Assembly: GCA_963733195.1 (NCBI GenBank)
Contig: CAVTCR010000065.1
Location: forward strand, 78,010 to 142,009
DNA from: an uncultured delta proteobacterium
GTDB taxonomy: Bacteria > Desulfobacterota > Binatia > Bin18
DNA length: 64,000 nt
Reading direction: 5' to 3'
A model generated the notes under the pieces. The model was not told the DNA's origin, did no database searches, and saw nothing but the letters and a program-made list of their open reading frames with translations. Made by a program: the position numbers and the translations under genes. This document shows positions 34,548 to 55,028 of the stretch, in pieces; the first letter of the stretch is position 1; every line of letters begins with the position of its first letter.

Positions 34548-37500
34548 GTGTTTCCACTTTCTGCTGATAGCGATTGTTGCTTGTGATAGACGACTGGAAC
34601 GGTAACCGTAAACGTTGAACCCTTGCCAAGATCACTCTCGACTGCAATTGATCCGCCTAACAACTCGGCCCACCGTTTAGCAATTGGCAATCCCAGCCCC
34701 GTGCCTTGGCGTCCCTGCGCCTCCTGGGGTAACTGTTTGAACTCTTCGAAGATATCCTCAAGGGCCTCAGCGGCGATGCCCACCCCGGTGTCAGCAACAG
34801 CAATCACGAGTCGTGCTTCGCCTCGCGCCCACTCTACTTGGCGCGCACGAACCACCACTTCGCCAGCTTCGGTAAACTTAATCGCGTTGCTCAAGAGATT
34901 GAGCACGATCTGTCGCAGTCCGTCTTCGTCTGTATACGCTTGCCTGACCTCGTCGGAAACCTCATGCCGCAGTTGTACCCCCGGTTTGACTAGGGGAACC
35001 ACGGTATCACAGCACGTCTGAATAAATCGCTCGATAGCGAAATCGATCGGACGCACCTCCATCCGCCCCGCTTCGATCTTCGAGAGATCAAGAAGATCGT
35101 TGATAAGATTGAGCAGGTGGTCGGCGCTCTCTTTGACTTTGACCAGATTGTCCCGCTGACGCTCTGGGAGTACATCTCCGGTCCGCCGCAAGACGAGGCG
35201 AGTGAAACCAATAATGGCATTCATCGGCGTGCGTAGCTGGTGCGACATCCCAGCCAGGAACTGTGATTTCCGTCGGGTCACTTCCATGACCTGCTGATTG
35301 GCCATCTCCAGTTCCCAGTTCTTCTCCTCTAACGCCCGTGTCCGTTCTTCGACCTTCTGTTCCAGGGTCTTACTGTAATCTGCTAACTGCGTGTTAGTCT
35401 CTTCGAGACTTCCGTACAGACGGGCATTCTCGATCGCAATCGCTGCCTCAGCACCTAACAGGTGCAAAACCTCCAACCGATCAGGGGTAAAAGCTCCCGT
35501 GGTCAGATTGTTCTCCAGATACAGAAGGCCGGTGAGTTTGCCCTGTGCAACAAGGGGCGTGCATAAGATAGATTTTGGTTGTACTGCACTAATGTACGGA
35601 TCAGTTGCGAATCTTGCTTCCTTTGTTGCATCAGTCAAGACAACCTGCTCCTTCATTCTTTCGACGTAGCGGAGAATGGCAAGCGGCAAGTCATTCTGCG
35701 TTTCCACTGGAACAGATTGCAGGGTTTGTACTTCGCTGCGTTCAATCGCCTTTTCGGCTTCGATGACCAAATGTCCATCTTTTTCGAGGATAAGAACGCC
35801 TCTTTGCGCCCCCGCATTTTCAATCATGAGGGCCATCAATTTAGTGAGGAGTTTATCCAGGTGAATCTCGCTCGAAATAGCCTGCGAGGCGTGAAGGATA
35901 CTGGTGAAGTCGAAAGCGTTTGACAGCCGTTGCTCAGTACTGGCAGTAAACATGCCCCCTCCAGATTGAGAAAAACTAGGGCTAGTGTGAGCAAGAAGTT
36001 GAGGATAGCGGGTTTCTAAGTCTTTAACCTTTGCTAACGCACCCCAGCGCACATAGGCATAGTGAGCATCTCGCAGATAGTGTTGCGCAAGTCGGACTGG
36101 CCTCTGGCCAGATAAAATTTGCCGCCAGTTCATTGGCTAAGGCTTCTTCGTTGACATATTCATGTCTTGCGCCAGATCGATGGCTTGGTCGTAGTATTCT
36201 CTGGCATCGCGATCATTCCCCAACACCCGCGCACGTTCCGCTTCCACCAGATAGAATTTATGCAGATAAGTTCATCGGGGCGTGCTGCGCCCAGAGCTTC
36301 ATCTTTTCCTGGTTGGCCGCAACCTTTTCAAGGATGCTTTTCTGTTCAGACTCCTGGTGTCGGGAAATATGGCCAGCCTGGCCAGGGAATCGTACAAGTG
36401 AAAGGCGGGAACAGCCGCGGTTCCGACTAAACTATCCAAATACTTTTCTGCTACGGCCGCATGTTCAATGGCTTGGGCGTATTCTTGAAACAGATGACAG
36501 AGGACGAGTTTGGTAGATATATGTGGCAAATGGTATTCTCATCGTTAGCTTTAAGTCGAAGAGGTAGATGTAGTCTCCTCGTCGTAGCTTTCACCGATTA
36601 ATTGGCATGGATTTTTAGCTCGCCCCAGCAAATTTAGGAAAACTTGCCTATATAATTCATTGAGATTCAGAGCATGACCTTGCTTGAGTTGGCGTATAGC
36701 ATCATTGTATTTTGTCATCTCCTGTTCTAGCCCGGTCAGTCCATGCCCATCCAAAATGCCTGAAAACCGTAGCCTTGCAAGTTGAAGGCGGCAAAAATCA
36801 GATCGCCGGTTTCCAGCCCTATTTGATATCCTTCCAGAAAAGGTGGAAGCGTTTCTTTAATATGTTCCTTCCAGTGCCGGATGAAGGCATTCACCATGTA
36901 GGTGACACTCGATTTGAGCCCCCGTGCGTTGAGCCGTTCTACCAGGTTCAATGCTAAGGTGCCGAACTGATAGCCAGCATCGATATCTCCTACTGCTCCA
37001 CAGAGAATAATCCCATACGTGGCATATGCTTGGGCCGAAAGAGGTATATTGCCACGTTGCGCCGACAAATTAACCATACGAAACACAATGAGGGGAAAGA
37101 GCTTAGGGAACGCTACATACGAAGGATGCAGCGTAGCTGAGAGAATGCGCATTTTGGCTATTGCATACGGATCCGTCATGGCTGGCAGATGAAGAAGCTC
37201 TTCGACGCACTTGCCGGCCAGAACTTGCCTTGTCTCTTCGAGACCGCGCAAAATATCTGCCTGGCTCGGCTCCTCAGGGAGCCGCTCCCCTAATAGCTCC
37301 AGAACCTGGAGGCCTGTCTTCAATCCTTCCAAAGATTGCTCTGGGCGGAAGAGGCATGGAGCATCACTTCATAGGCTCTGACTCTATCTAACGGAGCTTT
37401 CGCCCATCGCAGCACGAGTGCGGTCAAGTGCTCCATCTGCTGAAAGTCGCCGCTGAGATAGGCGGCTTCTGCGGCCTCGACATGAAGCGTTAACGCTAGT

Positions 37501-39866
37501 TCATACTGTTGCTCCCAAGCGTCTTCCGGTAACAACTCCAGACCAGATTGGAAATACCTGAAGGCGGGCTCGTAGGCTGCTGCCGCTTTTGCTTTCTTCC
37601 CAGCCGTCAAGTTTAAGGCCGCCAGTTCATTTTGCTGCCAGGGGTGTCGTATCGACTCTCTCCCTGAGTTCAGATGGTTAGCAATCAGAAAAATCTTTGC
37701 CTCCTGCTCGTCTTGTGAAGTTCGGCGCAAGAGCAGTTGCCCACCTGCCAGTGAACCGCTTGCTTATCCGCTGAGGGAATGAGGGAATACACTGCTTGCT
37801 GAATACGGTCATGGGCAAACTTGTACTCCACCGAGACTTCATCAAAGAGCCCCTGTACGTCAAGGCCTGCCAATGTGTACGCATCACCAAGAGGGAGAAC
37901 GAACCCGTCTGCGAGGGCTGGCCACAGCTCCGTGGCGGTCTCCGAGAACGACTTTTCATAGACAGTGGCGAGGGTGCGCAGATCGAACTGGTTGCCTAGG
38001 CATGCCGCCAGCTTCAGTACCTCTTGCGTCTCTACGCCGAGTTTTTGTACCTTGCCAACCATCAATTCGACGACATTGTCGGTGATATTCTGTGCACGAA
38101 TGTGCGCCACATCCCACTGCCACTCACGCCTCTGGGTATCGAAGGCGAGGAGTTCCGCTGTGGAAAGCGATTTGAGAAACTCAGCGACGAAGAAGGGATT
38201 CCCAGCAGTTTTGGCCAGCACCAGTTCCGCCAATGGTGTAGCCTTTTCTGGCGGACAGGTCAGGGTGTCAGCAATGAACTGCTGGAGGTGCGGGAGGTCT
38301 AACGGGCCTAGGGCAATATGATTGACCATTCCTCCCTCTTTGCGAATGTCGTTCACCGTCAACTGTACTGGGTGGGCTTCTGTCACCTCGTTATCGCGGT
38401 AGGCGCAGATGACAAAGAGATAGGAATTCTCCGCGTGCGGTCAGCAAAAGTTGCAAGAGGTGTAACGACGCACTGTCAGCCCACTGCAGATCGTCGAGAA
38501 AAAGGATCAACGGCCGGTCAGGTCCGGTAAACACGCGGACAAAATTCTGGAAGGCCAGGTGCAAGCGATTTTGCGCTTCTGCTGGTGGGCGGGGGGAATC
38601 GCAGGCTGTGGCCCAACAATCAGTTCAACTTCAGGGATGACATCAATTACAACCTGGAGGTTAGGCCCAAGGGCGACAATCAAGGCATTTTTCCAAGCAG
38701 TGATCTGCTCCTCACTTTCTGTTAGGATCTGTTGGACCAGAGCGCGAAAGGCTTGGGCCAAAGCGGCGTACGGAATGTTTCTCTGGAATTGATCAAATTT
38801 CCCCGCAATGAAATATCCACGTTGCTGTGCCATGGGTCGGTACACTTCCCGCACTAGGGCGGTTTTGCCGACACCCGCAGAACCGGACACCAACATAAGC
38901 TCACGAGCGCCCTGGCTGACGCGGGTAAACGCTCTCACTAAGGTATCGATATCTTGCTCGCGCCCGTACAGCCTTTGCGGAATCTGGAGTTGCGCTCTTA
39001 CTTCCTGCTGACCAAGCGAGAAAGCAACAATCTCTCCTGTCGTTTGCCATTGCCGCAGGCATTCCTGCAAATCGGCAATGAGTCCAGGGGCCGATTGATA
39101 CCGATCCTCAGCATTCTTCGCTAACAGCTTCATCACAACCGCAGAGAGAGGAAGGGGAATCTCTGGTACCAATTCATGCGGTGGGGGTGGCTGCTGCGCA
39201 ATATGCGCATGGACAAGGGCAAGTGCATCCGTCCCGAGAAAAGGCACGCGACCGGTCAGTAACTCATAGAGTGTGACACCTAGCGAGTAGAAGTCAGTAC
39301 GATAATCCACCACGCGATTCATGCGTCCAGTTTGCTCTGGCGACATGTAGGCAAGCGTTCCTTCTAAACCAGTAGGGTGTTGGAAAGGGGAATTTTCGCG
39401 ACTGAGCTGCGTAGCAATGCCGAAGTCGATCAACTTGAGCTGCCCCGTTTGCAGATTTAGCACGAAATTCGTAGGATTCACGTCTTTGTGGATCACCTGC
39501 TGCTGGTGCACTTGCTCAACAATATCGATAAGCTGGATTGCTAGAGGCAGGAGCGTCGTGAGGGGAACTCGACCATTCCGTAGAAGCTGCACCAGCGACT
39601 CGCCGCCGAAATCTTCTAATACCATGACTGGACGATGCTGGTCAGCGGTGAGCTCGTAGGCGCGAATGACTCCTGGCAGTTGGAGGCTGCAGAGCAACTG
39701 GTATTCGCGCCGAAAAGCGGCGAGCTTTCGTGGCGAGGGGTATTCTTCTCTAAGCGTTTTGAGAATGACAAACTGCGGCTCTGCTTCCTTGCGCACGGTA
39801 GATGAGCGAGAAGCGACTCTCATAGATTTTTTCCTTAACCTGACAAACCGCAATAGTCGTGATCAT
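34544..39866 (-). CDS. Ser/Thr kinase + AAA ATPase + TPR + GAF + histidine kinase, copy B (frameshifted)
   Basis: [65 protein letters not shown]. Confidence 0.9.
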
Positions 39867-39949
39867 TGTTGGGATCTCGCGCCTGTTGCAATCCTATGCT
39901 CGACGAAGCGACATGGTCTGATGACCTTATAAACCGTTACTATTCACTC

Positions 39950-40085
39950 TACAAACAATATATTAAAGCTCGACGCGGTCTATCAGTTGCGTTGCGCTTC
40001 GGCCCGGCCTTATGCAGCGTGCGACAGTGGTGCACAATCACCTCACCGGCCAAGACCGGACACGCAACAGCTGAGTCTCCACCCC
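39950..40085 (-). pseudogene. Degenerate 3' remnant of a PhyH dioxygenase
   Basis: Translates to SAVACPVLAGEVIVHHCRTLHKAGPKRNATDRPRRAL, homologous to 45864-46010. Confidence 0.8.
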
Positions 40086-40161
40086 CCGCCGTTCGTGCGC
40101 ATGGCGCACGCTACGAGGGACAGGCCAATGGAGCACCTGTACGAATCTCGTGTGGTCTGAT

Positions 40162-40537
40162 TTAGGGACCGGGACTCGCCCCGAGAAACTGGGTCAGTTT
40201 CTCGAACAACAGTTCTTCGTCGAGTGGTTTACTGAGGTAGTCATCGCAACCGGCCTGTCGGGCTTTTTCCTCGTCCCCCCGCATCGCATGTGAGGACAGG
40301 GCGATAATCGGGATATGCTGTAGCGTCGGGTCGGCTTTGATCCGGCGGGTGGCTTCCCAGCCATCGAGAACTGGCAATGAGAGGTCCATGATAATCAGGT
40401 CCGGGATGTTCACGTTCGGCTGACGTGATCCCGGCTGCTCCATCATTAGCAGTGAGGACTTCGTAGTTATCCTCTAAAAGCTGCACCAGGAGGTCCCGAT
40501 TAAAATCTACGTCTTCGACAATCAGAATCCGTTTCAT
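40162..40537 (-). CDS. Single-domain response regulator, paralog of 34173-34547 (one frameshift)
   Basis: [17 protein letters not shown]... IMDLSLPVLDGWEA...AGCDDYLSKP. Confidence 0.9.
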
Positions 40538-43500
40538 TAGTCCGCACTTTCTGCACAGCGATTTCTTGCGGCTTTCGGTAGACGAGCGGAATCGTAACGG
40601 TAAATGTCGAACCTTTTCCAGGCTCACTCTCTACCGTAATTGATCCGCCCAGCAGTACAGCCCACCGTTTGGCAATCGGCAATCCCAGCCCCGTGCCTTG
40701 GCGTTCCTGCGCATCCCGGGGTAATTGTTTGAACTCTTCGAAGATATCCTCAAGAGCCTCGGCGGCGATGCCGACCCCGGTGTCGGCAACGGCAATCACG
40801 AGCCTTGCTTCGCCGCGCGCCTGCTCTACTTGCCGCGCACGAACCACCACCTCGCCAGCTTCGGTAAACTTAATCGCGTTGCTCAAGAGGTTGAGCACGA
40901 TCTGTCGGAGTCCGTCTTCGTCCGTATATGCTTCCCTGACCTCGTCGGAAACCTCATGCCGCAGTTGCACCCCCGACCCGACAAGGGGAGACACCGTCTC
41001 ACAACATGTCTGAATGAAGCGGTTGACATCGAAAGATTCAGGACGCACCTCCATCCGCCCCGCTTCGATCTTCGAGAGATCCAGAAGATCGTTGATAAGA
41101 TTGAGCAGGTGGTCGGCGCTCTCTTTGACTTTGACCAGATTGTCCCGCTGACGCTCTGGGAGCACATCTCCGGTCCGCCGCAAGACGAGGCGAGTGAAAC
41201 CGATAATGGCATTCATCGGCGTGCGTAGCTGGTGCGACATCCCAGCCAGGAACTGCGATTTCCGTCGGGTCACTTCCATGACCTGCTGATTGGCCATCTC
41301 CAGTTCCCAGTTCTTCTCCTCCAACGCCCGTGTCCGTTCTTCGACCTTCTGTTCCAGGGTCTTACTGTAATCTGCTAACTGCGCGTTAGTCTCTTCGAGA
41401 CTTCCGTACAGACGGGCATTCTCGATCGCAATCGCTGCCTCAGCACCTAACAGGTGCAAAACTTCCAACCGATCAGGGGTAAAAGCTCCCGTGGTCAGAT
41501 TGTTCTCCAGATACAGAAGGCCGGTGAGTTTGCCCTGTGCGATAAGGGGCGTGCATAAGATAGATTTTGGTTGTACCGCACTAATGTACGGATCAGTTGC
41601 GAATCTTGCTTCCTTTGTTGCATCAGTCAAGACAACCTGCTCCTTCATTCTTTCGACGTAACGAAGAATGGCAAGCGGCAAGTCGTTCTGCGTTTCCACT
41701 GGAACAGATTGCAGGGTTTGTACTTCGCTGCGGTCAATCGCCTTTTCGGCTTCGATGACCAACTGTCCATCTTTTTCGAGGATAAGAACACCTCTTTGCG
41801 CCCCCGCATTTTCAATCATGAGGGTCATCAATTTAGTAAGAAGTTTATCCAGGTGGATCTCACTCGAAATAGCCTGCGAGGCGTGAAGGATACTGGTGAA
41901 GTCGAAAGCGTTTGACAGCCGTTGCTCGGTACTTGTAGTAAACATGCCCCCTCCAGATTGAGAAAAACTTGGGCTACTGTGAGCAAGAAATTGCGGATAG
42001 CGGGTCTCTAAGTCTTTGACCTTCGCCAGCGCTCCCCAGCGCATGTAGGCATAACGAGCATCGTGCAGATAATGCTGGGCAATCGGCTCTTGGCCTCTGG
42101 CCAGATAAAATTTGCCGCCAGTTCATTGGCCAAGGCTTCTTCGTTAACGTACTCATGTTTCTTGCGCCAGATCGATGGCTTGGTCATAGTATTCTCTGGC
42201 ATCCCGTCATTGCCCAAGACCCGTGCACGTTCGGCTTCCACCAGATAGAATTTATGCAGAAAGTTCATCGGGGCGTGCTGCGCCCAGTTCTTCATTTTCT
42301 CCTGATCAGCAGTGACCTGTGTGAGAACGTCTCTTGTCGGATACCGGAAGGTCAGACAATATGGCCAATCTCGCTAAAGAACTATGAAATAGAGACGGGA
42401 ACGTATGGCCGTCCCCGGCACTCCCTCTAAATAATTTTCTGCTTTATCGGCATGGGCAATGCTTGAGGAAATCGTGAAACATATAACACAGCATCAATTT
42501 GTGGAGTAAATTAGGGATAGCGCATTCCTGTTATTTGCTTCACAGAAGAAGTGGAAGTTTCGTTTCCTCATTGTAGTTGTCGCCGATCAATCGACAGGAG
42601 TCTGAGACAGGGGTGGTAAATTCAAGACAATTTGATGGTGCAGGGAAATTAAATTAGAGACAGTTTCCTGCTTCAGTTGATCCGCAATCTCACTGTATTT
42701 CGATATGCTATGTTCTAGCTCTGCCAATTTCTCACCGCTCCAATACGCCTTGAAAGCAATAGTCGAACGCCGCCTGGGTCCAATACTTACATCCCCTGTC
42801 TCTAAAGCAATTCTGTATGCCTCGAGTGAAGGTTTTAAGGTATCTCTAACATGTCTTTCCAAAGTCTGACAAACCCGTTGACCATAAATATAGCACTCGC
42901 TTGGATCTCTTTGGCATTGAATCGCTCCCCAAGGGTCAAAGCGAGTTGACCAAACGATAGCCGTGTCAATATCTCCCAGCGATCGTAGATAAAATAAACC
43001 CGTAAGAAGCATACGCTCGGGCCGAATGGGTGTATTGCCATACCACCGATAATTTGACTACGTACACACAATGAGGGGAAAGAGATCAGGCGCGCCAATG
43101 TAGGCGGGGTGAAACAGTCGCATCAGGATCTTCATTGCTGCCAATTGATAGGGATCTGTCATCTCGGGTAGATTGAATAGGTCTTCGATTTTTTTCCGAC
43201 CAAAGCTCGCTGTGTTTCCTCCAACCTTGAAAATATCTTCTTGGCTCGGTTTTTCAGGAAGCTGTATCCCCAACAATTCCAAGACCTGTAGACCGACTCT
43301 AATTCCCTCTTGTTTATCCTGTATAGCATAAGTGGCATAGACGTATCTCGTACACTTTCACTTTGTCGAGCAGAGTTTTGGCTTGTTGCAGGACAACATC
43401 AGTCAATCGCTCCATCTGCTCATAGTCGCCGACAAGGTAGGCTGCTTCCGCCGCCTCGGTATGAAGTGCCAGGGCCAGGTCGTACTGTCGCTCCCAGGTA

Positions 43501-45827
43501 TCTTCCCCTAACAGACTCAAGCCAACCTGGAGATAATCGAGGGCCGGCCCATATGCCGCTTCTGCCTTTGCCTTTCTGCCGGCTATGAGATTGAGCTCTG
43601 CTAACTCATCCTGCCTTGCCTGTTGGCGAGCCAATCGCGTCCCAGATTGAGATGGTTAACAATAGCAAAGATCTTTTGCTCGCGATCGTCTGCTACACAT
43701 TCTGCAGGAGCAGTTGACCTATTTGCCAGTGTACACCCTGTTTGTCCGCGTCGGGAACAAGGGAATAGGCGGCGTGTTGGATTCGGTCATGGGAAAACTG
43801 GTACTCAACCGTCACTTTCTCCGCCAACCCTTGAACATCGAGATTCATGAGCATGTAGGCACTCCCCAGAGGCGAGACCAAACCTTCTTCCATCGCATCC
43901 CACAAATCAGCCGCGGTTTCTCTAGCAGAATGCTCATACACGATTGCGAGCGTTTGCAGGTCAAACTGATTACCCATACACGCTGCTAACTTCAAGAACT
44001 GTTGTGTTTGCTGCCGAGCTTTTGCATCTTTCCGCCATTAGTTCGACGACATTATCGGTTATATGTTGCGCCCGAATATGCGCGAAGTCCCACCGCCACT
44101 CACGCTGGAAATCGAACGTCAATAGCCCCTCAGTGTAAAGCGATTTCAAGAACGCATGACAAAAAAAGGATTCCCGTCGGTCTTGGCGAGCACCAATTCT
44201 GCCAACGGACGGCCTCCTCTTTGGTGCACTTGAGTGAGTCAGCAATCAACTGACACACGTCAGGAATCCAGCGGTTGCAGAACAATATGATTCACAACCT
44301 GCCCGCCTTTCTGAATCTCGTCGAGCGTAATTTCAACGGATGGGCTTCGTCACTTCGTTATCCCGATACGCACCGATAACAAACAGATAATGGTTTTCCG
44401 GCGCAGTCATAAAGGGTCGAAGCAGATTCAGCGAAGCAGAGTCGGCCCATTGCAAATCGTCGAGGAAGAGTACAAACGGACGTTCGTCCTGTAAACACGC
44501 GAATGAAGTTCTGGAACACCAGGGTAAAGCGATTTTGCGCCTCTGCCGGAGGAAGGCGGCACGGCCGGCTGCGGGCCAACAATCAGTGCGATTTCAGGAA
44601 CGAGGCCAACCATAACCTGACGATTCGGTCCGAGTGCGGCGAGCAGTTTCTCTCGCCACGCGGCAATCTGACTCGCTTTCTGTTAATAGCTGCCGCATCA
44701 GAGACCGAAAGGCCTGCGTTAACGGTGCATAAGGAATTTCTTGTGGAATTGATCGAATTTGCCTGTGATAAAGTACCCTCGCTGTCGTGTAATTGGCTTA
44801 TAGACTTCCTGCACCAAGGTGGATTTGCCAATGCCAGCGTGTCCGGAAACAAGCATCATTTCGCCGGCTCCCTGGCTGACGCGCGCAAAAGCGGTCAGGA
44901 GTGTCTAATATCTCGTTCGCGTCCGTACAGCTTTTGCGGGATACGAAATTGGTCCGCACGTCCTGCCCGCCAAGCGGAAAGAGATCAATCGCCCTCTCGC
45001 TTGCCGTTGCCGATGCATTCCTCTAGGTCTGCCTTCAGGCCATACGCCGACTGGTAGCGATCTTCGGCATTCTTCGCCATCAGTTTCATCACGATAGCGG
45101 AGAGAAGCTTGAGGAATGTCAGGGAGGAGCTCGTGGGGTGCACGAGGTTGCTTGGCGAGATGGGCGTGCATGAGTTCCAATGCATCGACGGTCGGAAAGG
45201 GTAATTGTCCTGTCAGCAATTCATAGAAACTGACACCGAGCGAATATAAATCGGTCCGATAGTCCATGGTCCGGTTCATACGCCCGGTTTGCTCCGGCGA
45301 GATGTATGCTAACGTTCCTTCCCCTACCGTCGGGTTACGCACGATCTGGATTTTCGCGTGACAGGACTGTGGCAATACCAAAGTCGATCAGTTTGACTTG
45401 GTCCGTTTGCGGATTCCACACGATATTGGAGGGATTCACATCTTATGCATCACATGCTGCTGATGCACGTGGCTCAAAATGTCAGCGATCTGAATGGCCA
45501 GCGGGAAGAAACTCGGCTGGCAGGGAATCGTCTTTGTCTCTTCTTCAGATGCAGTTCGAGCGACTCACCGCCAAAATCCTCTAGCACCATGACGGGACGG
45601 TGCTGATCAGTTGTCAGGCTATAGGCGTTGATGACCCCTTCCAGTCGAAAGCTCCGGGTCAGTTCGTACTCCCGTCTGAACCAGGCAACTTTTTCCGGCG
45701 GAGGGTAGGGCTGTTTCAGGATTTTAAGGATGACGGACTGCTCTTCCTCCTCCCGACGACCGCGATAGATGAGCGAGTGTTCACTCTCATAGATCTGTTC
45801 CTGAACATGGTAGCCTGCGATAAGCAT
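40537..45827 (-). CDS. Ser/Thr kinase + AAA ATPase + TPR + GAF + histidine kinase, copy A (heavily frameshifted)
   Basis: Kinase motifs ([17 protein letters not shown]), FSHDRIQ, and a GAF/HK C-terminus nearly identical to copy B. Confidence 0.88.
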
Positions 45828-45863
45828 GGGTATCTCTCGGACCCTCGACTGGCTGCGATCTTT

Positions 45864-46545
45864 CTAGCAGTCTCCTATCACTTGACAGACGACCACTAAT
45901 GCTCGACGAGGCTTATCAGTCTTATTAGGCCCGGCAGAATGTAAGGTGCGACAGTGATGAACGATAGCCTCGCCAGCCGCCACCGGACAGGCGACAGCTT
46001 CCGAGAATTCGACATTCTCTGCCACAAGATGATCATCATGGGGATGATGCGGGAGGACGTCTCCCAAATGCGAGCGCCCTATGTAAGAGAGACAACCTAC
46101 TTTCGGACGTTGCAGGGTCTAATGGCATCCATACACTAGCGCCGTGATACGGAGGTGGACGATACGCGGCGTCTTGGTGCCAGGGAGTCTCACTGCCGTG
46201 GGCTGGTTTGCAGAATATGCGCCATCCATTGAGAAGGTGTGTTTCCTCGACGTCGAGAAGACGTGCAACCGCCTTGCGTGCGTTCCGCAAGAAGAGCGTA
46301 CTTTTCAATGCAGGAACCACTCCTTCGGGTGACAGAATTGCTACCAAGGCAGGAGGTGGGTGTCCACCAAGCAAAAGAGTTAACTCCTCCGGAGTATACC
46401 CTTTCCTCTGCTTGCAAATCATATCGTAGGCATCTTTAAGCCACGCAAGTTCCTGGTCAGTGGTGACGCGACCGAGGTTGAGGAATCCCTGTTCTTGGAA
46501 ACAACGGACGTGTTCATCTCTTAAGTCAATACAGGCGTCTTCCAT
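45864..46545 (-). CDS. PhyH-family Fe(II)/2-oxoglutarate dioxygenase (one frameshift)
   Basis: KPAHGSETPWHQDAAY (HxD), VWMPLD, HHCRTLHSAGPN..PRRA. Confidence 0.88.
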
Positions 46546-46593
46546 GTTCCGTCGTCTCCTTATTCCTGTGGGCTAAGGTCTGCATGTGAACGA

Positions 46594-48865
46594 CTAGAAA
46601 AAAAAGTGCCGAGGGTTCAACTGGTCTTCGGCCAAGGGGTTGCACCCGCCAGCCCATTTGTACAGGCACCTCATAGAGTCGGCCACGAGCAAACCGAGGC
46701 CAAAAGTGTCGTAACCCTGGAACAATAACCTTTACGACATGAAGTCCAATGTCCGGTCGGGTCTGGTCCAATACCAGTGTTTCAAGCCCTTTCTGTGCGG
46801 CACTCCCTACGCAGGTCATTACATCCACATAGAGATCATCAGTCCACTGCCGAGGATAGTCACGCTGTTTCTTCGGAGCCAAAGTCTCGTCAGGCATCAA
46901 ATAGGGTTGGTTTTCGCGGGTAGCAGTTTTCCACCATGAAATCGCCTCGGGGTCAGCGGACAGATATTGTCCGTCTTGTGCAGGCGAGCAAGGGGACACA
47001 GCCGGCAGCAATTGATTCACTTCCGTCAGGGCGCGAAGAAGAGCGATGTATGGGTCAAAGTGAGTACCGAACCCCAAAAGAATGTCTTCAACCTCCTTAT
47101 CGTTTCGGCGTGAGATCGCGGCAAAGGCGGGGATGTTGAAATCGCTTGTGATATCCAGCACCCACAAGTCGCGATGTAGTATCTTGTAATAGTCTTGCAG
47201 TTCCTGGAAGTATGGTTCGGAAAAACTGGAAAGATCTACCGCCGGTTTTTGTAAGCGGTTGTACCACCATAACGCGACACAATCACGCTCTATGAGTTCC
47301 ATGAAGCCCTGGAGTATGGCTTCTTCTTTGCTGTGGCCAGCGGCGCATCCGTTTGAATCTGCACGGGCGAACCAACTATAGTGCTTTCGCGAATACCCGT
47401 AGTAGCAGTAAGCGGTTGGAACGTAACGCGGTTCGCCATGGGTCAGCGACCACACTGGACTCCACTCGATCTCTTGAGCATCCTCAAAGGGCTCTGGCAC
47501 CCAACTCGACGGAGAGCCAATCGCATTCCAGGCTTTACGATCCTTCAACTGGGTCTCACTAAAAAGCATACAGTCACGAGGATGGATAGCCGCGCCGCCG
47601 AAATCTTTGAGCCTGGCGCAGAATACGGGCTTCGTCACCCTGAAAGACACCCGAGTAGCGTTCAATGGCTTCACATAAGGCACTGGCTTTGGCTTGGCTA
47701 GAATCCTGCCCTTGCCGGCTGAAGCATCACGCAAAGTTGCCTGAAGAAAATCCATGTCCCAGGTGTAATCTTTCGACGCATGAATAAAATTATGACCCGT
47801 GACATAGGACAGCACCAAGCCATGCTCTCCCATCCATGGTGTAGTCGGCTGAATCGTGTGCACGATGCCAGAGATGGACTAATGTGATGCTCAAGCTTCT
47901 TGAGTGTTTCTTCAGGGGAAAGGGTGCGATGTCCACCGTCAATGGTAAACACCTTCTTCCGGCTTTGCAGTATTATTGGCGCAGCTTGTCCAGATGCAAA
48001 AGCGGTCGGATCGCCACAGTGCGAGCACTGAGATCGTCGTACCACTGTATGACTACGTCGTGCCAACGAAAAAGAAGGTTGACAGAAACAACATGACTTT
48101 CGAGGTCTTCATTTCGTCCACGAACAATCCACTTGGCCGTCTCGGTTGCAGCGATGTTAAGCGCCGTGTGGATCGTTGGAAGGGAGAGCTGCCACAGCGC
48201 GAGCCATTGGGGGAGCAACATTCAACTTTTCTTGTACATAGCTTTCGACTTTACGAGCCCCGCGGAGCCGGTGGGCAAGGCACGCCCAACAGGCTGTCTT
48301 GCTGGAAGAAAGAGCGGCCCTAGCCACACCTCTGTCCCCACCGGTTTGACTAACAACCACGGGCGGTCACTGGCGAGAGCTTGTCGGTTGAATGTCTCCA
48401 AATCTGGGTGCAGGTAATCCTTGGTGAGAACGACCCAGTATTCCCCATTGTCCACGACTCGAACACCGAGTGACGTCAGAATCGTACGGAAGGGAAGAGG
48501 ATCGATGTCGCCACAGGAGATAACGGAGACAGGCACTTCCTGCAGACGCCTGGCAGCCTTTTCTGCGCCCCCATCAAACATGTCCCAGAAGGCCGCTTGC
48601 TCCAAGGGGAGAGACAGGGGTTCATCAACAAGATAACCCCTGCTACGTAACCTCATGAGGGCCGAGAAGATCTCCGAGGCAGGAAACTCATCCTGTAGGC
48701 GATTGATGATCTCATCGACCATGTGTTGACCGTTGAGAAGTGGCACCAGATAAGTGTACACGCCGCTGCGAAGCGGGACGTGTCCCTGTTCCGACAAGAG
48801 AACACGCCTTCTCCAGGAACAATCGCCCAACGAAACCACGGCTTGAATTGCGGTCGGGGGATCAT
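46594..48865 (-). CDS. TOMM leader-binding (RRE/ocin-ThiF-like) + YcaO cyclodehydratase fusion (frameshifted)
   Basis: PWLLVKPVG..WLGPLF...TACWACL..RL; DGGHR..PEETL; SNGCAAG; ELIERD; RALTEVNQ; DQTRPDIGL.VVKV.VPGLRHFW.RF..GRLY.VPV. Confidence 0.9.
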
Positions 48866-48929
48866 GGCTTCTCGGCTCCGTCGTCTTCTCATAGCCAAAC
48901 CGCCGAAAAGATCTATGCTCTCCGCGGGG

Positions 48930-49227
48930 TCAGCAGGTCAGCCGAAGAAAGAACTTAAAAAGAAGCGCTGCTGTACCATCTATGATACTTAGGAGCTGAG
49001 CATCAGAAAAATCGCGAGGGAGCAGGCGGATTAAACAATCTCAAAAAGACTATCAAGTAAGTAATATCAACATTAGCGAGATTTAATATTGCGGCGCATT
49101 TTCTTTGACCGCTTCATTGGGATCTGTCTCGAATAGGTCTTTGAAAGACGCATCGTTGTCAAGCTTGACTACTTCACCAGATAAACGCATATATTCGACC
49201 CCAATCGTCTGGCTTTATCGCTGTCAT
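48930..49227 (-). CDS. Putative NHLP-like RiPP precursor 2 (frameshifted)
   Basis: AGGGAG RBS; joined frames give MTAIKPDDWGRIYAFIW..DNDASFKDLFETDPNEAVK...RDFSDAQLLSIIDG-TAALLFKFFLRLTC*. Confidence 0.65.
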
Positions 49228-49239
49228 AATCGAGTCTCC

Positions 49240-49653
49240 CTGTGAAAAATAGCAAATTACTGACCTAACTGAACCAAGCGCATTAAGACTTTCTACAAAT
49301 AGCTCTCTTAAAGTAGAGCTACTTGCCCTATACCGTACCAGAAAGACCTCAGGGGACTTCTTCAGCTCATTATGCAGTATTGATTTGCCGTTCATGATAA
49401 TGGCCAAAAGCTGGGGGCAGTCATCTGGCTAAATTTCGTCTCTCCTTGCGCGAAAATATCGTCTTCATAGAACTCTATGTTGGGGATCACAGGATGAGGA
49501 AGAGGCCCGCCGAATTGCCCCTGAATCTGCCGATATGCTAGAAGCGGGTCGGTTTCGAGTTTCACTTTGAAGGAAGGATCTGTGCCAGCCTCCCGTAATA
49601 GCCTTGGCCCATGCTCGGGCCCAATACTTTCTCTCTAGGTCTCCGTTTGCCAT
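49240..49653 (-). CDS. Putative NHLP-like RiPP precursor 1 (frameshifted, 3' end uncertain)
   Basis: AAGGAG RBS; MANGDLERKYWARAWAKA..EAGTDPSFKVKLETDPLLAYRQIQ...QLLAIIMNG; paralogous to precursor 2. Confidence 0.6.
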
Positions 49654-49700
49654 AGCTCTTCTCCTTTCTTCCGCTAGGTTTCATCGCCTATGGGCCGACA

Positions 49701-51322
49701 TTATCCGTTCATCGCCTTAATGGATGGTGCAAAAAAGTAGCCGCCTCCTGTGGGGATTACCCAACGAGGCTGCGGTAAAGCCACTTCTTCAGTACCATCT
49801 CCAAACGCAATGCGAAACTTCCGAGGGAGGTTTCTATTATTTTGCCCGATGATCGGATCGTAACCTGGCTCCTTCTTATCTCTGAACCAAGAAGAATTCG
49901 CTACGTGTTTGTATATGTTCAAATTGATTTTCAATCGAGGTTTGGTAAGCAATGAAGAAGAGACCTCGGTCAACGGTATCGTCGATAGGGTCAGTAAATG
50001 TTGAGAGGGACCGCGGGCCGTACGGAATCCCGCGACGTAGCAGGCGGTGAGTCAATGTTTCATTTGTATCTTGATCGTCGCGGGGATTAGTCCTGCGTAT
50101 ATGAGAGGCAAAGGGGCAAACTTTTCCGTCAGGATCATCCTTTTGAAACTCGAAGGCGTTAATTCTAGGGTCCTTTTGAACTATATCTTTGCTATCCTTT
50201 TTAGGGTCGGAGAAAATTGGGGCTCCGTTCAGCCCGGCGACCAACACACATTTCGCCGAATTGCTGGGCTGTAAACTTGTATTGCTCGGCTTTATCTTTG
50301 TATTGCTCGGCTTTATCTTTGTATTGCCTGGCTTTATCGTGAAGAAACTTGTGGAAAGCTCCTACGTCCTGCCGTAGGCGGCGGATGACAAGGAAAGAAC
50401 CATTCCTGGCGAATTCCCGAATTTTATCATCAATCGCATTGAGGGAGTTTGTCCCTTCGTTCTTAGAATTCGTTGGATCTTGCCTAGGATACCCGAAGAC
50501 AAACTCGCCTGGCCACACGAGCTTCTGTCCGGGTTTGCCTTCATCTTCAGCAAGGGGGTCTTCACAGGGAGAGAGATAGTCATCTTTAGCGGGGGAGGGC
50601 TTCTTTGAGAACCTTCCTCGCACGCCTGGCTGTGATATTCCGTCACGAAAGCCAAAGTGCTCGTGTCCAGTGAATGGCTCAGGCAGGTTGGCGCCGTGCT
50701 GCTTGAAGATGATCCGGACACCGCTCCAGTCGGGCATCTCCTCGTTCGTTTTTGGCAGCGCGTATGTATAGATGCTGTCCTCGATACGGGCTACTTCATT
50801 GTACAGGTCAAGCTGATCGTCGCTTGCGACGATCAAGACGATGTCTGCTTCGTTCTTTGGTCCTCCTACTACCCAGGTTCGCTGGGTCCCCTTCTCTCCC
50901 ATCTATTGGGTCGCCGAGAATTTCCTTAGCCCGCTGCCAAAGCCCTGCCGGAAAAGGCGTATCCTTAAAGTCCCCATCTTTTTGAAGTCACTTCTAGCTT
51001 CCCAGGAGCGCAGAGTGCGAAAACGCGATATTTAGCCAGGTAGTTCTTCTTTGGGGGGCTTCCCCTGCCGCTTCCTTCTTTCGTAAGTAAACGTCCGAAA
51101 GCAAGCACCTGTTCCATAGTCGTAAGGGATAGAGTTCTCAGCCAGCGCCTGAAACTTATTCCCCATCCTCAATCTTCAGGAAAAGAAATGCCTGAAAGTC
51201 TTTGTTAAACCCGGGAATGATGTTGCCCTGGATATTCTTAATGTCGAGTACTGGCTCGTTAGCGTTGTTGTTCAGATAAACCCATCCTCTCGTTGATAGT
51301 AGATATGGTCATGTTCAGGCAT
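49701..51322 (-). CDS. Dyp-type heme peroxidase (frameshifted)
   Basis: IQGNIIPGFNKD, EHFGFRDGISQP (GxxDG), NGSFLVIRRLRQDV, CPFASHIRRTNPRD, LLRRGIPYG, GGGYFFAPSI. Confidence 0.9.
50277..50339. repeat. In-frame 21-bp tandem repeat x3 inside the Dyp gene
   Basis: ttgtattgctcggctttatct x2 plus one variant; encodes DKARQYK DKAEQYK DKAEQYK. Confidence 0.85.
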
Positions 51323-51411: not shown

Positions 51412-52404
51412 TCAGAGCTGCCACGGGCTTGGGAGGTTGAGGTTAGGGATATAGGAACAGGACATGCCAGTCTTAATTGTGGTCTTCAGATGGAGCCACA
51501 ATTCTGGATCAAGGGGCTCAATCTTCTGCAAGGCGGCATCGATGGCGCGCTTGACGTTGACCCGCGCTCTTTCAATGTGGGCTCCGTCGAATCTATCGTG
51601 ACCATTCATTCCAACCGCGTGGCGCAGTTGATCCTGCAACGCGTCAATTTCCTGCTCGATTCGCTCAGCTTGCTGCGGGTTATTTCTCTTTGCCGCTGCC
51701 AAGGTTTCTTGTAACTCGTTCAGTCGTTGCCAATAGGCAGCCTTGGCCTTTGCATCAAGAACTTCTCCTGCATGACCAAGGTCTTCATGAATGCTTCCCT
51801 CAGGAAAAACTTCTCGGGACCCCTCGCCAATGGCAGTCGTATCTAAGTCGCGAACATGGATAGCGCGGTGTGGGTGGCGAAGGAGATAGGCAATATGGTG
51901 GAGACCTTTGCTATCCCTCAAGCGATTCACTTTTCCCTTATAGGCAACCGTCCAAAGCTCTCCTTCTTTATGGAAGACTCGGGTGGGTGCCGTATGTTCT
52001 TGAATTCTCCGATCAATCAGCTGTTTGTGGGTTACAGCGCTGCGAACACGGGCGAGAAGTTCGCGATCATCGACAGGTTTAGTAAGGAAGTCATCTGCAC
52101 CAGCCTCGATTCCTCTCACCCGATCTTCTATTGCCCCAAGGGCAGTCATAATGATGACTGGAATCAGCTGTGTGTCTTCTCGCTCCTTCAAGGCACGACA
52201 GGCCGAAAAGCCATCCATCTCAGGCATCAGCACATCAAGGAGGATAACTGTGGGTGAATGGGTCACCGCCTTTGCCAAGGCTTCTGTGCCGTTGGTTGCG
52301 CTGACGGTCTGATAGCCTTGCTCTTCGAGTTCCTGCTCTAAGTAATTAATGTTATTGGGCTCATCATCGACGATGAGGATCGTAGCTGTTGAATGTATGG
52401 CCAT
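51412..52404 (-). CDS. Response regulator with a putative C-terminal DNA-binding/output domain
   Basis: Receiver domain (ILIVDD, LLDVLMP, FLTKP) + FHKEGELWTVAY..LRDSKGL...ERARVNV.RAI..AL..I...TG..CSY. Confidence 0.85.
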   Translation of the reverse strand: MAIHSTATILIVDDEPNNINYLEQELEEQGYQTVSATNGTEALAKAVTHSPTVILLDVLMPEMDGFSACRALKEREDTQLIPVIIMTALGAIEDRVRGIEAGADDFLTKPVDDRELLARVRSAVTHKQLIDRRIQEHTAPTRVFHKEGELWTVAYKGKVNRLRDSKGLHHIAYLLRHPHRAIHVRDLDTTAIGEGSREVFPEGSIHEDLGHAGEVLDAKAKAAYWQRLNELQETLAAAKRNNPQQAERIEQEIDALQDQLRHAVGMNGHDRFDGAHIERARVNVKRAIDAALQKIEPLDPELWLHLKTTIKTGMSCSYIPNLNLPSPWQL

Positions 52405-52724: not shown

Positions 52725-53147
52725 CTAGTTACGAGCGCCGAGGGACACGCCGAGTTGTTGCAGGAGACCCAGCGCATCCCAGTTAATCCACATTTCCTTA
52801 AGCTTGCCGTTGGCGATGTGACACGTCATCGTGCCCGTGGTCGTTGCCTGTTTCCGGGTTGGTGCGATCCCCATTATCTCTCCCAGGTGCGTGCCATGGG
52901 CGGTCCAGCGCCACACCACGATATCGTTTTCGGCAATCACTTCCTCGACGGTGTACTGCAGATCAGGAAATGCGTTGCGGACCATTGCGTTGTGTTGCCT
53001 GACGCCGTCGGAGCCGTGGATGTCTGCTCCAGTCGGATCGTGACCGATGAAACCTGGGGCGATCAGCTCATCGGTGAGCGCCGCGTTCCCTTTGTTCAAT
53101 ACCTCTTCGATATAACGACGGACCAGAGTTTTATTCGTAGCTGACAT
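52725..53147 (-). CDS. SnoaL-like ester cyclase
   Basis: NKTLVRRYIEEV, AFPDL, GTHLGE.MGIAPT, WDALGLLQQLG; AGGAGG RBS. Confidence 0.88.
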   Translation of the reverse strand: MSATNKTLVRRYIEEVLNKGNAALTDELIAPGFIGHDPTGADIHGSDGVRQHNAMVRNAFPDLQYTVEEVIAENDIVVWRWTAHGTHLGEIMGIAPTRKQATTTGTMTCHIANGKLKEMWINWDALGLLQQLGVSLGARN

Positions 53148-53774: not shown

Positions 53775-55028
53775 TAGGGTGATTGCACTAAAAAGCGTGT
53801 CCAAAAACGAGGTTAGCGAGGTACACCTCATCCCAGCCAGCCTTGAGCCGTTTGTTCTGAATCCCAAGTTTCGTGTGCGTGTCTTGGCGTAAGAGATTAA
53901 GCGCGATATGGCGCAACACGGCGAAATTCTCAGGGCCATGGCCTACGCGGATGCGGGAGTCATCTTCGCGAAACGCCACATCCAAGACCCAGTGGACACA
54001 ATTCTCAATCCCCCAATGAGCGCGGACCGCATGGGCAAACAACTGGACCTCATTGGGGATGCTCGCAATGTAATACCGCTGCTCAATAGTGACTTCCCCC
54101 TTGAGGTGGCGTTCCGATTCGACCATCCCCACGCAGCGGAGCTGGAGCCAGGCGCCTTTCTGCACGAGGTCTGGCGGGACCTCTAGTGTCCAGTGGCGGC
54201 GAATCTCCACCCGCCCGTGCTGTTGCTCTTCCGTCTCATAGGCCTGAAGAGAGATTTCCTCACTAATCGTGTCACGCGCTGCCTGAAACTGCTGAACCAC
54301 GGCCTCGTACAACGTGCCATGGTTCTGTTTGAGCGCCAGGACATAGTCCGCGTCTTGCTCGACAATTTGCTGGGCAATGGCTTTCTGGCACCCCATCGCA
54401 TCAATCGTCACAATACATCCGCTGACATCCAGGACGTTGAGCAACGCCGGAATCGCGGTGATCTCGTTTGATTTCTCCTCCGTCTTTACTTGGCCCAAGA
54501 CCACGCGATTGTGGGTGGCCCACGCACTGACCATATGGATGGCAGCTTTGGCCGAGCGCTGATCATAGGACCGGCGGAGCGTTTTCCCGTCAATCGCGAC
54601 AACCTGCCCCTGCGTCACCTGGGCCACCGCCTGAATCCAGCTCAGAAAACAAGCCTGCAACGCCTGGGGGGAGAGCACCGCGAATACCCGCCCAAACGTA
54701 TCGTGCGACGGAATCCCATGGGCAAGTCCCAAAAAACGGGCGAACCATTCTCGCTTCGCTCGCCCAAAGGTTTCCACCGCCACCCAGTCGTTGGCGCCAC
54801 ACAAGATGGCACAGATGGCGATGACCAGCACGTCTATCAGTTTGTGTTCTTTGTGCCGGTCGATCCGCGGATCAGCGAGGTCCCTAAAATGCTCCAGCAA
54901 AGCGGCGGTTCGATGCTCTTTCATGCGCAGACTCCTTGTCCCAACAACTTTCCTCCTCAAGAGTCTGCCATATCTCTCCCCCTCTGCTAATCTCTTGTTA
55001 TCTCTTAACTTTTAGTGCAATCCCCCTA
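53775..55028 (-). mobile_element. ISAs1 family insertion sequence
   Basis: 19-bp terminal inverted repeats TAGGG(T/G)GATTGCACTAAAA at 53775-53793 and 55010-55028 (18/19 match) flanking a transposase. Confidence 0.92.
53788..54924 (-). CDS. ISAs1 family DDE transposase
   Basis: [55 protein letters not shown]; intact. Confidence 0.95.

Follow-up and report, generated by a model that had tools for sequence, protein, structure and literature searches.

A candidate two-part NHLP-clan substrate, broken by frame changes in its assembly, upstream of a fused cyclodehydratase in an uncultured Binatia bacterium

Background

Among described systems, the nearest to the one reported here are the NHLP-Burk precursors, which, in the part of Haft, Basu and Mitchell (2010, PMC2887384) devoted to them, appear as tandem pairs in Burkholderia and as fusions in Delftia and Acidovorax. 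One member of such a pair ends in Cys or Cys-Cys, and the pair adjoins a fused cyclodehydratase and a large Ser/Thr kinase (PMC2887384). The same part of that paper considers a two-peptide product for these precursors and reports, for the species that carry them, no close homologue of the three types of NHLP export gene (PMC2887384). Cox et al. (2015, PMC4603692), in their passage on the subject, repeat the description of NHLP-Burk and name CxxCSC as the metal motif of nitrile hydratase. A 2025 report describes structured NHLP leaders that are recognised by a YcaO through protein/protein contact (PMC12455567). The literature that we searched yielded no product or function for the NHLP-Burk type. 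Here we describe a pair of modules, referred to from this point on as A and B, found in a window of 64,000 nucleotides (nt), by which we mean the whole stretch of DNA that was analysed (contig G000:C65 of genome G000, from an uncultured member of the Binatia). All coordinates are those of the window, and the locus lies on its minus strand, where the gene pair spans from the ATG at 49653 to the TGA at 48932-48930. We consider it likely that this region is a bipartite NHLP-clan substrate of the fused cyclodehydratase encoded next to it.

Results

Anatomy of the A/B region

The region was read by three-frame translation of 49720-48900 (-), together with a stop-to-stop list of frames. Between 49653 and 48930 the assembly holds six open pieces, which alternate between two frames and are separated by five single-base frame changes (Table 1). 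The first piece, in frame 1, begins at ATG 49653 with MANGDLERKYWARAWAKA, and the second, in frame 2, contains GTDPSFKVKLETDP. The third, again in frame 1, includes QLLAIIMNGKS and runs through 84 codons up to MTAIKPDDWGRIYAFIW. It is followed by a fourth piece in frame 2 (LDNDASFKDLFETDPNEAVKENAPQY), a fifth in frame 1 (AAILNLANVDITY), and a sixth in frame 2, which reads FSDAQLLSIIDGTAALLFKFFLRLTC and then meets the stop at 48932-48930. Joined across the frame changes, these pieces make up the two modules. Module A contains WARAWA (frame 1), DPSFKVKLETDP (frame 2) and QLLAIIMNG (frame 1), and has no C-terminal Cys. Module B contains MTAIKPDDWGRIYAFIW, DASFKDLFETDP (frame 2) and a leader end, QLLSIIDG (frame 2), with WGRIYA in frame 1.

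An earlier, sequence-only reading of this DNA had proposed two paralogous NHLP-like precursor peptides masked by frameshifts. Every motif that it quoted is present in the three-frame reading, and so are the ribosome-binding sites that it assigned to both modules. By eye, a Shine-Dalgarno-like AAGGAG lies 7-8 nt 5' of ATG 49653, and a Shine-Dalgarno-like GGGAG (49240-49236) lies 8 nt 5' of ATG 49227. Its description of the B tail can likewise be read directly: module B ends in FSDAQLLSIIDG-TAALLFKFFLRLTC and a stop, with a 14-residue hydrophobic tail after IIDG, in which only Thr1 and the terminal Thr-Cys are cyclisable. Module A continues for about 45 residues past QLLAIIMNG, part of which aligns with the conserved C-terminal part of the A genes of relatives. 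Compared with the A genes of two of these (loci L025 and L027, described below), the window A has about 13 extra residues (..PEVFLVRYRASSS..) before the conserved end, at 49261-49350 (-). This stretch is loosely like the TLRELFVES that comes next, and may reflect a small duplication or further compensating errors.

Relatives with fused or split genes

Searches of related genomes at the DNA and protein level located the cyclodehydratase in G001, G010, G018 and G022, where it is 51-56% identical to that of the window. At the fused-type loci (L008, L009, L010 and L011), one intact open reading frame (ORF) of 229-251 amino acids (aa) lies directly upstream of the cyclodehydratase, the ORF of L009 being 274 aa long and read from its 248-aa Met. 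This ORF sits between a regulator or Dyp-type peroxidase and a cyclodehydratase of 756-762 aa, contains two W.R.(W/Y)A...F...L...P repeats, and has endings such as CVSLSC or RICLCC. When 1.84 billion proteins were searched with a profile of the fused ORFs, no more than 24 representatives came back at E <= 0.001, with lengths of 195-271 aa in nearly every case, and fusion of A with B is seen in most family members. A divergent fused subgroup, with endings WMVTKCC or LLRLCC, is the closest fused form to the window. When G000 itself was searched with the fused-family profile, zero matches were returned, the broken copy being too divergent and too fragmented for that profile.

Split pairs occur at three other loci. 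A scan of species genomes revealed a Candidatus Binatia contig (L025) on which A1-B1-A2-B2 are followed by the cyclodehydratase. Its A proteins are 119 and 122 aa long with Cys-less ends, its B proteins are 91 and 92 aa long and both end in FLQTRLTC, and B2 begins MSAITDADWGRIYAFIW. Two metagenome contigs carry Dyp-A-B (L026) and a partial A followed by B (L027), in each case with the cyclodehydratase next in order. The A proteins of the relatives finish in GDHEIY, GSLKIH and GDLEIY, without Cys. Over its N-terminal part, the cyclodehydratase of the window is 71% identical to that of L027, 60-61% identical to those of L025 and L026, and 51-56% identical to those of the fused-type loci, so that the split loci are the nearest kin of the window.

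Bridged across its frame changes (see below), module B aligns with the full length of the B-gene profile, positions 1-92 of 92 (58.8 bits, E 3.7e-20), from its first Met, exactly Met 49227, to its last Cys, and a genome search recovered the same two module B pieces. Bridged module A matches the A-gene profile at positions 8-98 (24.8 bits) and shares 43% identity with the incomplete A of L027. By hhalign, the A family aligns with the N-terminal half of the fused form (E 4.2e-12) and the B family with its C-terminal half (E 1.2e-23), which makes the split and fused forms a clear Rosetta-stone relation. The two halves of fused relatives also align with each other (E 1.3e-10 and 1.4e-8), as do the split A family and the split B family (E 9e-8 over 82 columns). 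The term paralogous is therefore right for A and B, and the earlier description of paralogous modules hidden by single-base shifts is borne out once five bridges are made.

Homologues were sought beside YcaO genes, and at all loci examined (8/8, window included) a fused or split A/B gene was found directly upstream of the cyclodehydratase. A Dyp-type peroxidase is adjacent in 3/6 of the loci with upstream sequence. Of 40 distinct family sequences, 34 end in [STC]-C, and the other six are fragments or lack the C-terminus. The family is very rare and deeply divergent, consisting of the 24 representatives plus a few split B genes. One short protein, P0027 (94 aa, starting MAN..IEREDWARVWAKA), resembles module A of the window alone; it may come from an A gene that stands by itself, or be a fragment from the end of a contig.

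Kinship with the NHLP clan

The NHLP-Burk precursor model, TIGR03795 (BMA_0021; cut-off 41 bits), finds nothing at E <= 1 in the window region, and nothing among the fused ORFs of L008 and L009 or the A and B ORFs of L025. In the divergent fused subfamily, 4/7 members match it below the cut-off, the best at E 0.043. The NHLP leader model, TIGR03793, finds 7/7 members of the fused subfamily, with a best E-value of 4e-4 and a score of 17.2 bits for P0024 against a cut-off of 50.9. It also matches B2 of L025 at 15 bits (model positions 16-77 of 77), and has no match among the window pieces. Further matches below cut-off in the same subfamily are to TIGR04509 (4/7), NF038399 (4/7) and the nitrile hydratase alpha model TIGR01323 (5/7), whose scores here are 11-16 bits against a cut-off of 249.85.

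Searched against PDB sequences, the fused-subfamily profile finds nitrile hydratase alpha at E 3.2e-5 and the NHLP leader chain 8tb1_A at E 1.6e-3. In nitrile hydratase alpha (2ahj_A and relatives) the match is colinear, with query positions 10-35 on residues 58-83 and query positions 145-203 on residues 131-192. Profiles of B, of A and of the first fused family returned nothing relevant from the PDB sequences at E <= 1, and Pfam returned nothing significant for the six window pieces or the intact fused ORFs. The CxxCSC metal motif was not found in the sequences of the A/B family. A C-terminal C..L.C, present in some members, might be taken for what is left of the metal site of nitrile hydratase, a reading that was considered and rejected, since the tail follows the equivalent of motif 2, far downstream of where the metal site lies in the enzyme. 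A structural model of a fused relative, with a predicted local distance difference test (pLDDT) value of 81, has no Foldseek match at E <= 0.001. Its best VIA-align Z is 3.8, and the NHLP-clan protein Os1348 (6lk7_A) comes at rank 16 with Z 3.4, tied with unrelated chains. A second model (pLDDT 73) likewise has no Foldseek match at E <= 0.001. Going by the profile comparisons, the kinship of the A/B family with the NHLP clan is real but distant. Of the earlier claim that the modules are NHLP-like, the distant clan kinship stands, to nitrile hydratase alpha as well as to the NHLP leader chain, and assignment to a modelled family does not, all NCBIfam matches within the clan being below cut-off. 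The same holds for the NHLP and BMA_0021 models that it had named, which give weak clan matches in relatives with their cut-offs missed and, for TIGR03795, nothing in the window.

Frame changes in the window and in the assembly

To bridge the region, each of the five breaks was replaced by X, and scores were controlled with 200 shuffles. The bridged read-through has zero in-frame stops left and preserves the conserved residues of the family, terminal Thr-Cys included. Against the profile of the closest fused subfamily it scores 63.2 bits in one domain, as compared to 2.3 bits for the best of the 200 shuffles. It scores 34.0 bits against the other fused subfamily, the best shuffle over both searches reaching 4.2 bits.

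Essential genes are broken in the same assembly. In G000, rpoB is in three frame pieces and rpoC in several (C71:133111-141235), leuS is in two (C41:42252-44899), and secA is whole. In G002, of the same genus, and in G010, of the same family, rpoC, leuS and secA each occupy a single ORF. Because split essential genes are impossible in a living cell, indel (insertion or deletion) errors must occur across the G000 assembly. Closer to A/B, the Dyp, cyclodehydratase and kinase 2 genes each show three frame changes relative to intact relatives. The five (or six) single-base frame changes in A/B are most likely assembly errors rather than biology, and short-gene calls anywhere in the G000 assembly need care. 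A look-up of public sequencing runs covering 46000-51000 listed none. The A gene of L027 also shifts frame, at an eight-A run within L027:150-210, where ..EALELLEDLDVLR meets a stop and the sequence goes on in another frame. A mistake in the contig may explain this, or a genuinely slippery site.

Split or fused in this window

The sequence-only reading spoke of two ORFs, a description that holds for the split pairs of the three closest relatives and not for the assembly as it stands, in which no stop codon separates the modules. Frame 1 is open for 84 codons, which favours fusion, and one more (sixth) indel within 49295-49257 would yield two genes. The spacer at the junction is 29 nt long, AT-rich, and contains the GGGAG already mentioned. 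A split is favoured by the closest relatives, which are split, by the Met of B, which is kept at the start position of the family and has its Shine-Dalgarno site, and by the out-of-frame TAA where A should end. The junctions of L025, L026 and L027 each have a stop, a Shine-Dalgarno site and an ATG. Two DNA alignments of the junction disagree, with the stop codons of the relatives facing different bases of the window, and the precursors are only 26-46% identical. On balance, we lean slightly towards A and B being two genes in the window. That they form one fused gene is a serious contender, at somewhat less than an even chance.

Predicted complex of A and B

A model of the complex of A2 and B2 from L025 has a score of 0.84, against 0.02 for the best of three controls, and as a prediction supports binding. 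The mark for this score was reached by 116/157 solved complexes and by 2/215 mismatched pairs, counts that are rough and for which own alignments were used. Runs for A2-B2 agree in at least 73% of contacts, with a partner pLDDT of at least 83. Tail residues 82-90 of B2 are placed in the predicted interface, but the confident contacts do not include residues 91-92. The fused relative is modelled as a compact body, with a predicted template modelling score (pTM) of 0.82 at the pLDDT of 81 given above, its last residues being of low confidence. Structure searches found no solved complex like A-B. The prediction is strong that A and B make one folded unit.

Neighbouring genes

The genes around A/B are listed with the features of the region in Table 1. 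Pieces of the window cyclodehydratase exceed the cut-offs of both TIGR03604 (233.8 bits, cut-off 219.25) and TIGR03882 (50.9 bits, cut-off 36.9), for which an intact relative scores 272.9 and 165.1 bits, and match PF02624 (YcaO) and PF21084 (N-terminal winged helix) in Pfam. A search of G000, a genome that is 93% complete and frameshift-ridden, for a SagB-type FMN-dependent dehydrogenase (TIGR03605) was negative at E <= 0.001, and none was seen in the loci of the relatives. No protease or exporter gene was seen near the locus.

Over its first ~700 residues (39835-37739), kinase 2 is 83.5% identical to the kinase downstream of the cyclodehydratase in G001 (L009, on G001:C220). The Dyp, precursor and cyclodehydratase genes are just 41-56% identical to those of G001, whose precursor is of the fused type, and the window has an extra kinase and the PhyH-like gene in comparison with L009 (within 35069-51218). 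On sequence grounds, the cassette looks exchanged or inserted relative to this genome of the same genus. Beyond the response regulator are a SnoaL-like protein at 52725-53147 (-) and a DDE transposase (PF01609, PF13808) at 53788-54960 (-). With the TOMM kinase/cyclase model TIGR03903, 53 matches were counted in the G000 genome, every one under the cut-off, a sign that kinase/AAA_16-type proteins have expanded greatly there.

Table 1. Features of the A/B locus and its surroundings, in coordinates of the window
Feature	Position	Strand	Remarks
Module A, NHLP-like partner	49257..49653	-	~131 aa, assuming TAA 49259-49257 as its stop
A/B junction	49228..49295	-	Frame 1 open; TAA 49259-49257 one base out of frame
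Module B, precursor-like	48930..49227	-	~98 aa; ATG 49227, TGA 48932-48930
C-terminal tail ('core') TAALLFKFFLRLTC	48933..48974	-	Terminal Thr-Cys is the proposed cyclodehydration site
Frame break 1, frame 1 to 2, one extra base	49584..49599	-	
Frame break 2, frame 2 to 1, one base lost	49413..49417	-	Five-C run; bounded by stops 49431-49429 and 49394-49392
Frame break 3, frame 1 to 2, one extra base	49174..49179	-	Just past ..YAFIW
Frame break 4, frame 2 to 1, one base lost	49083..49113	-	Probably near 49090-49094
Frame break 5, frame 1 to 2, one extra base	49007..49011	-	Five-T run; bounds 49040 and 49003
Fused cyclodehydratase (winged-helix RRE, E1-like, YcaO)	46526..48898	-	In at least three frame pieces; three frame changes, frames -1/-3/-2/-1 against intact relatives
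Dyp-type peroxidase	49710..51218	-	Directly upstream; in three pieces, three frame changes
Response regulator	51412..52404	-	Intact; orthologue upstream of the precursor in L008, L010 and L011
PhyH-like Fe(II)/2-oxoglutarate dioxygenase fragment	46036..46545	-	L008 and L009 lack it at this position
Large kinase, copy 1 (Ser/Thr kinase, AAA_16, GAF and histidine kinase domains, in this order)	40500..45827	-	Several frame changes
Large kinase, copy 2	35069..39853	-	Same architecture; three frame changes

Discussion

In the mechanism that we propose for a bipartite substrate, A would serve as an unmodified partner subunit and B, its paralogue, would consist of a leader-like body ending in IIDG and the 14-residue tail ending in Thr-Cys. 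As separate proteins the two would bind each other tightly as a heterodimer, and as a fusion they would fold into a single protein. The folded leader body would be the docking site of the cyclodehydratase, which, with ATP, would convert the exposed C-terminal Thr-Cys to a thiazoline, perhaps to a methyloxazoline-thiazoline pair. Docking on a folded A-B would agree with the 2025 report that structured NHLP leaders are recognised through protein/protein contact (PMC12455567). With the search for a SagB-type dehydrogenase negative, the ring may persist as an azoline; as a speculation, the neighbouring Dyp peroxidase or PhyH-like oxygenase may oxidise it. The nearly invariant two-residue target at the C-terminus gives a testable prediction, namely that B loses 18 or 36 Da at Thr-Cys when A is present. 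Systems of the A/B type may modify a small protein complex and not a peptide for release.

A number of points weigh against this reading. The assignment as substrate, which is probably correct, derives from gene position and a conserved C-terminus. None of the curated family models reaches its own cut-off on the A/B family, and the fold match to nitrile hydratase alpha is only local (31-38 residues at 0.6-2.2 A, Foldseek E >= 1.3). The heterodimer is a prediction, and since A2 and B2 correspond to the two halves of what is a single fused gene in other genomes, a passing score was likely. The junction is open in frame 1, and two ORFs would thus take a sixth error. Finally, breaks are unusually dense in A/B, with 5-6 in 724 nt (~7-8 per kb) versus nine in ~8.5 kb of three neighbouring genes (~1 per kb), an excess with P ~0.001-0.002 by Poisson arithmetic, and runs of at least five bases hold only two of them.

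Because the density of breaks exceeds that of the neighbours, some real decay may have been added to assembly error. Taken further, the precursor, cyclodehydratase, Dyp and kinase genes would be a cluster of decaying pseudogenes, with at least some of the frame changes present in the DNA, and the transposase gene at 53788-54960 and the recently exchanged look of the cassette relative to the same-genus genome would fit such a history. The likewise split rpoB, rpoC and leuS genes, however, prove indel errors for the G000 assembly, and bridging restores a stop-free frame with the conserved residues up to and including the terminal Thr-Cys. In addition, the region is AT-richer than its surroundings, at a guanine plus cytosine content of 45%, and richer in homopolymers, with 6.9 runs of at least five bases per kb compared to 2.7 in the window. 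We therefore regard a pseudogene cluster as unlikely. Indel-rich long assemblies can conceal short genes of the A/B kind from annotation.

As for what A and B do, the sequence-only reading treated them as two equivalent precursors, that is, as independent paralogous NHLP peptides, each with a leader and a core, to be cleaved and heterocyclised separately. Both modules do have sequences like motif 1 and motif 2 and a Shine-Dalgarno site, the three closest relatives have A and B as separate genes, and a two-peptide product was also considered in the NHLP-Burk part of the 2010 paper (PMC2887384). But equivalence fails on module A, which is Cys-less and, in place of a short variable core, carries ~45 partly conserved residues after QLLAIIMNG. 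The A proteins of the relatives are Cys-less too, in the GDHEIY, GSLKIH and GDLEIY endings. Together with the fusion of A and B in most family members and the one extensive A-B interface that is predicted (0.84, best control 0.02), this makes separate processing quite unlikely. At the opposite extreme, A/B could be a nitrile-hydratase-like accessory or regulatory protein, the substrate of the YcaO being encoded elsewhere or by another small ORF. A predicted body that is folded rather than a free peptide would suit such a role, as would the lack of a protease or exporter gene nearby, a lack which recalls that of close homologues of the three NHLP export gene types in NHLP-Burk species as stated in that part of the 2010 paper (PMC2887384). 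We judge it very unlikely, given that the gene lies directly upstream of the cyclodehydratase in 8/8 loci, that the [STC]-Cys end is kept even in very divergent members, and that a YcaO is known to bind NHLP leaders in their long, structured form (PMC12455567). A more tentative idea, on the doubtful side, is that A-B is a folded heterodimer and not a secreted peptide, in which the azoline-carboxylate formed from the exposed Thr-Cys would be an intrinsic cofactor, reactive towards metals or in redox chemistry, that the Dyp peroxidase may act upon and that would signal to the kinases and response regulator. If true, this would be a YcaO modification at the protein level for signalling and not for antibiotic making.

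Comparison with known systems

Read as a bipartite substrate, which we prefer, A/B has its closest parallel in NHLP-Burk. Like NHLP-Burk, it occurs as a tandem pair (L025, L026 and L027) or as a fusion (L008 to L011) beside a fused cyclodehydratase-docking protein. One member of the pair, B, ends in Cys, here as Thr-Cys, and the other, A, does not. A very large Ser/Thr kinase is nearby and an exporter of the NHLP type is absent, again as in NHLP-Burk. The arrangement is thus not new as a kind, tandem pairs, some of them fused, having been described for NHLP-Burk in 2010 (PMC2887384). Unlike NHLP-Burk, the A/B family scores under the cut-off of TIGR03795 and so falls outside that family as modelled. 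Its kinase has AAA_16, GAF and HisKA domains (with HATPase_c in the window copy), and Pfam lists no cyclase domain. To illustrate, the kinase downstream in L008 matches TIGR03903 only within model positions 482-972, with 192.5 bits against a cut-off of 705.75. The A/B family comes from Candidatus Binatia and metagenomes, whereas the hosts of NHLP-Burk are Burkholderiales, and the Dyp peroxidase adjacent in half of the A/B loci with upstream sequence (3/6) counts as another difference.

With the NHLP/proteusin leaders (TIGR03793), the family shares a motif 1 of the form W..AW.D..FK..L..DP, a motif-2-like L..II.G before the tail, and a long, structured leader. In contrast to these leaders, it has a single invariant Gly (IIDG, IIAG or IIKG) and no Gly-Gly, and in place of a hypervariable core rich in Cys, Ser and Thr it has a conserved hydrophobic tail of which just the last two residues are cyclisable. 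It also needs a second, Cys-less paralogue as partner, and its scores of 15-17 bits compare with a TIGR03793 cut-off of 50.9. Distant profile homology is shared with nitrile hydratase alpha, but A/B, with neither the CxxCSC site nor an overall fold match, is not a subunit of that enzyme. As judged from sequence, the architecture is that of the NHLP-Burk tandem and fused pairs of 2010, in a rare and divergent variant from a different phylum. The A/B family would be a second one with the logic of NHLP-Burk, a type known from genomes since 2010.

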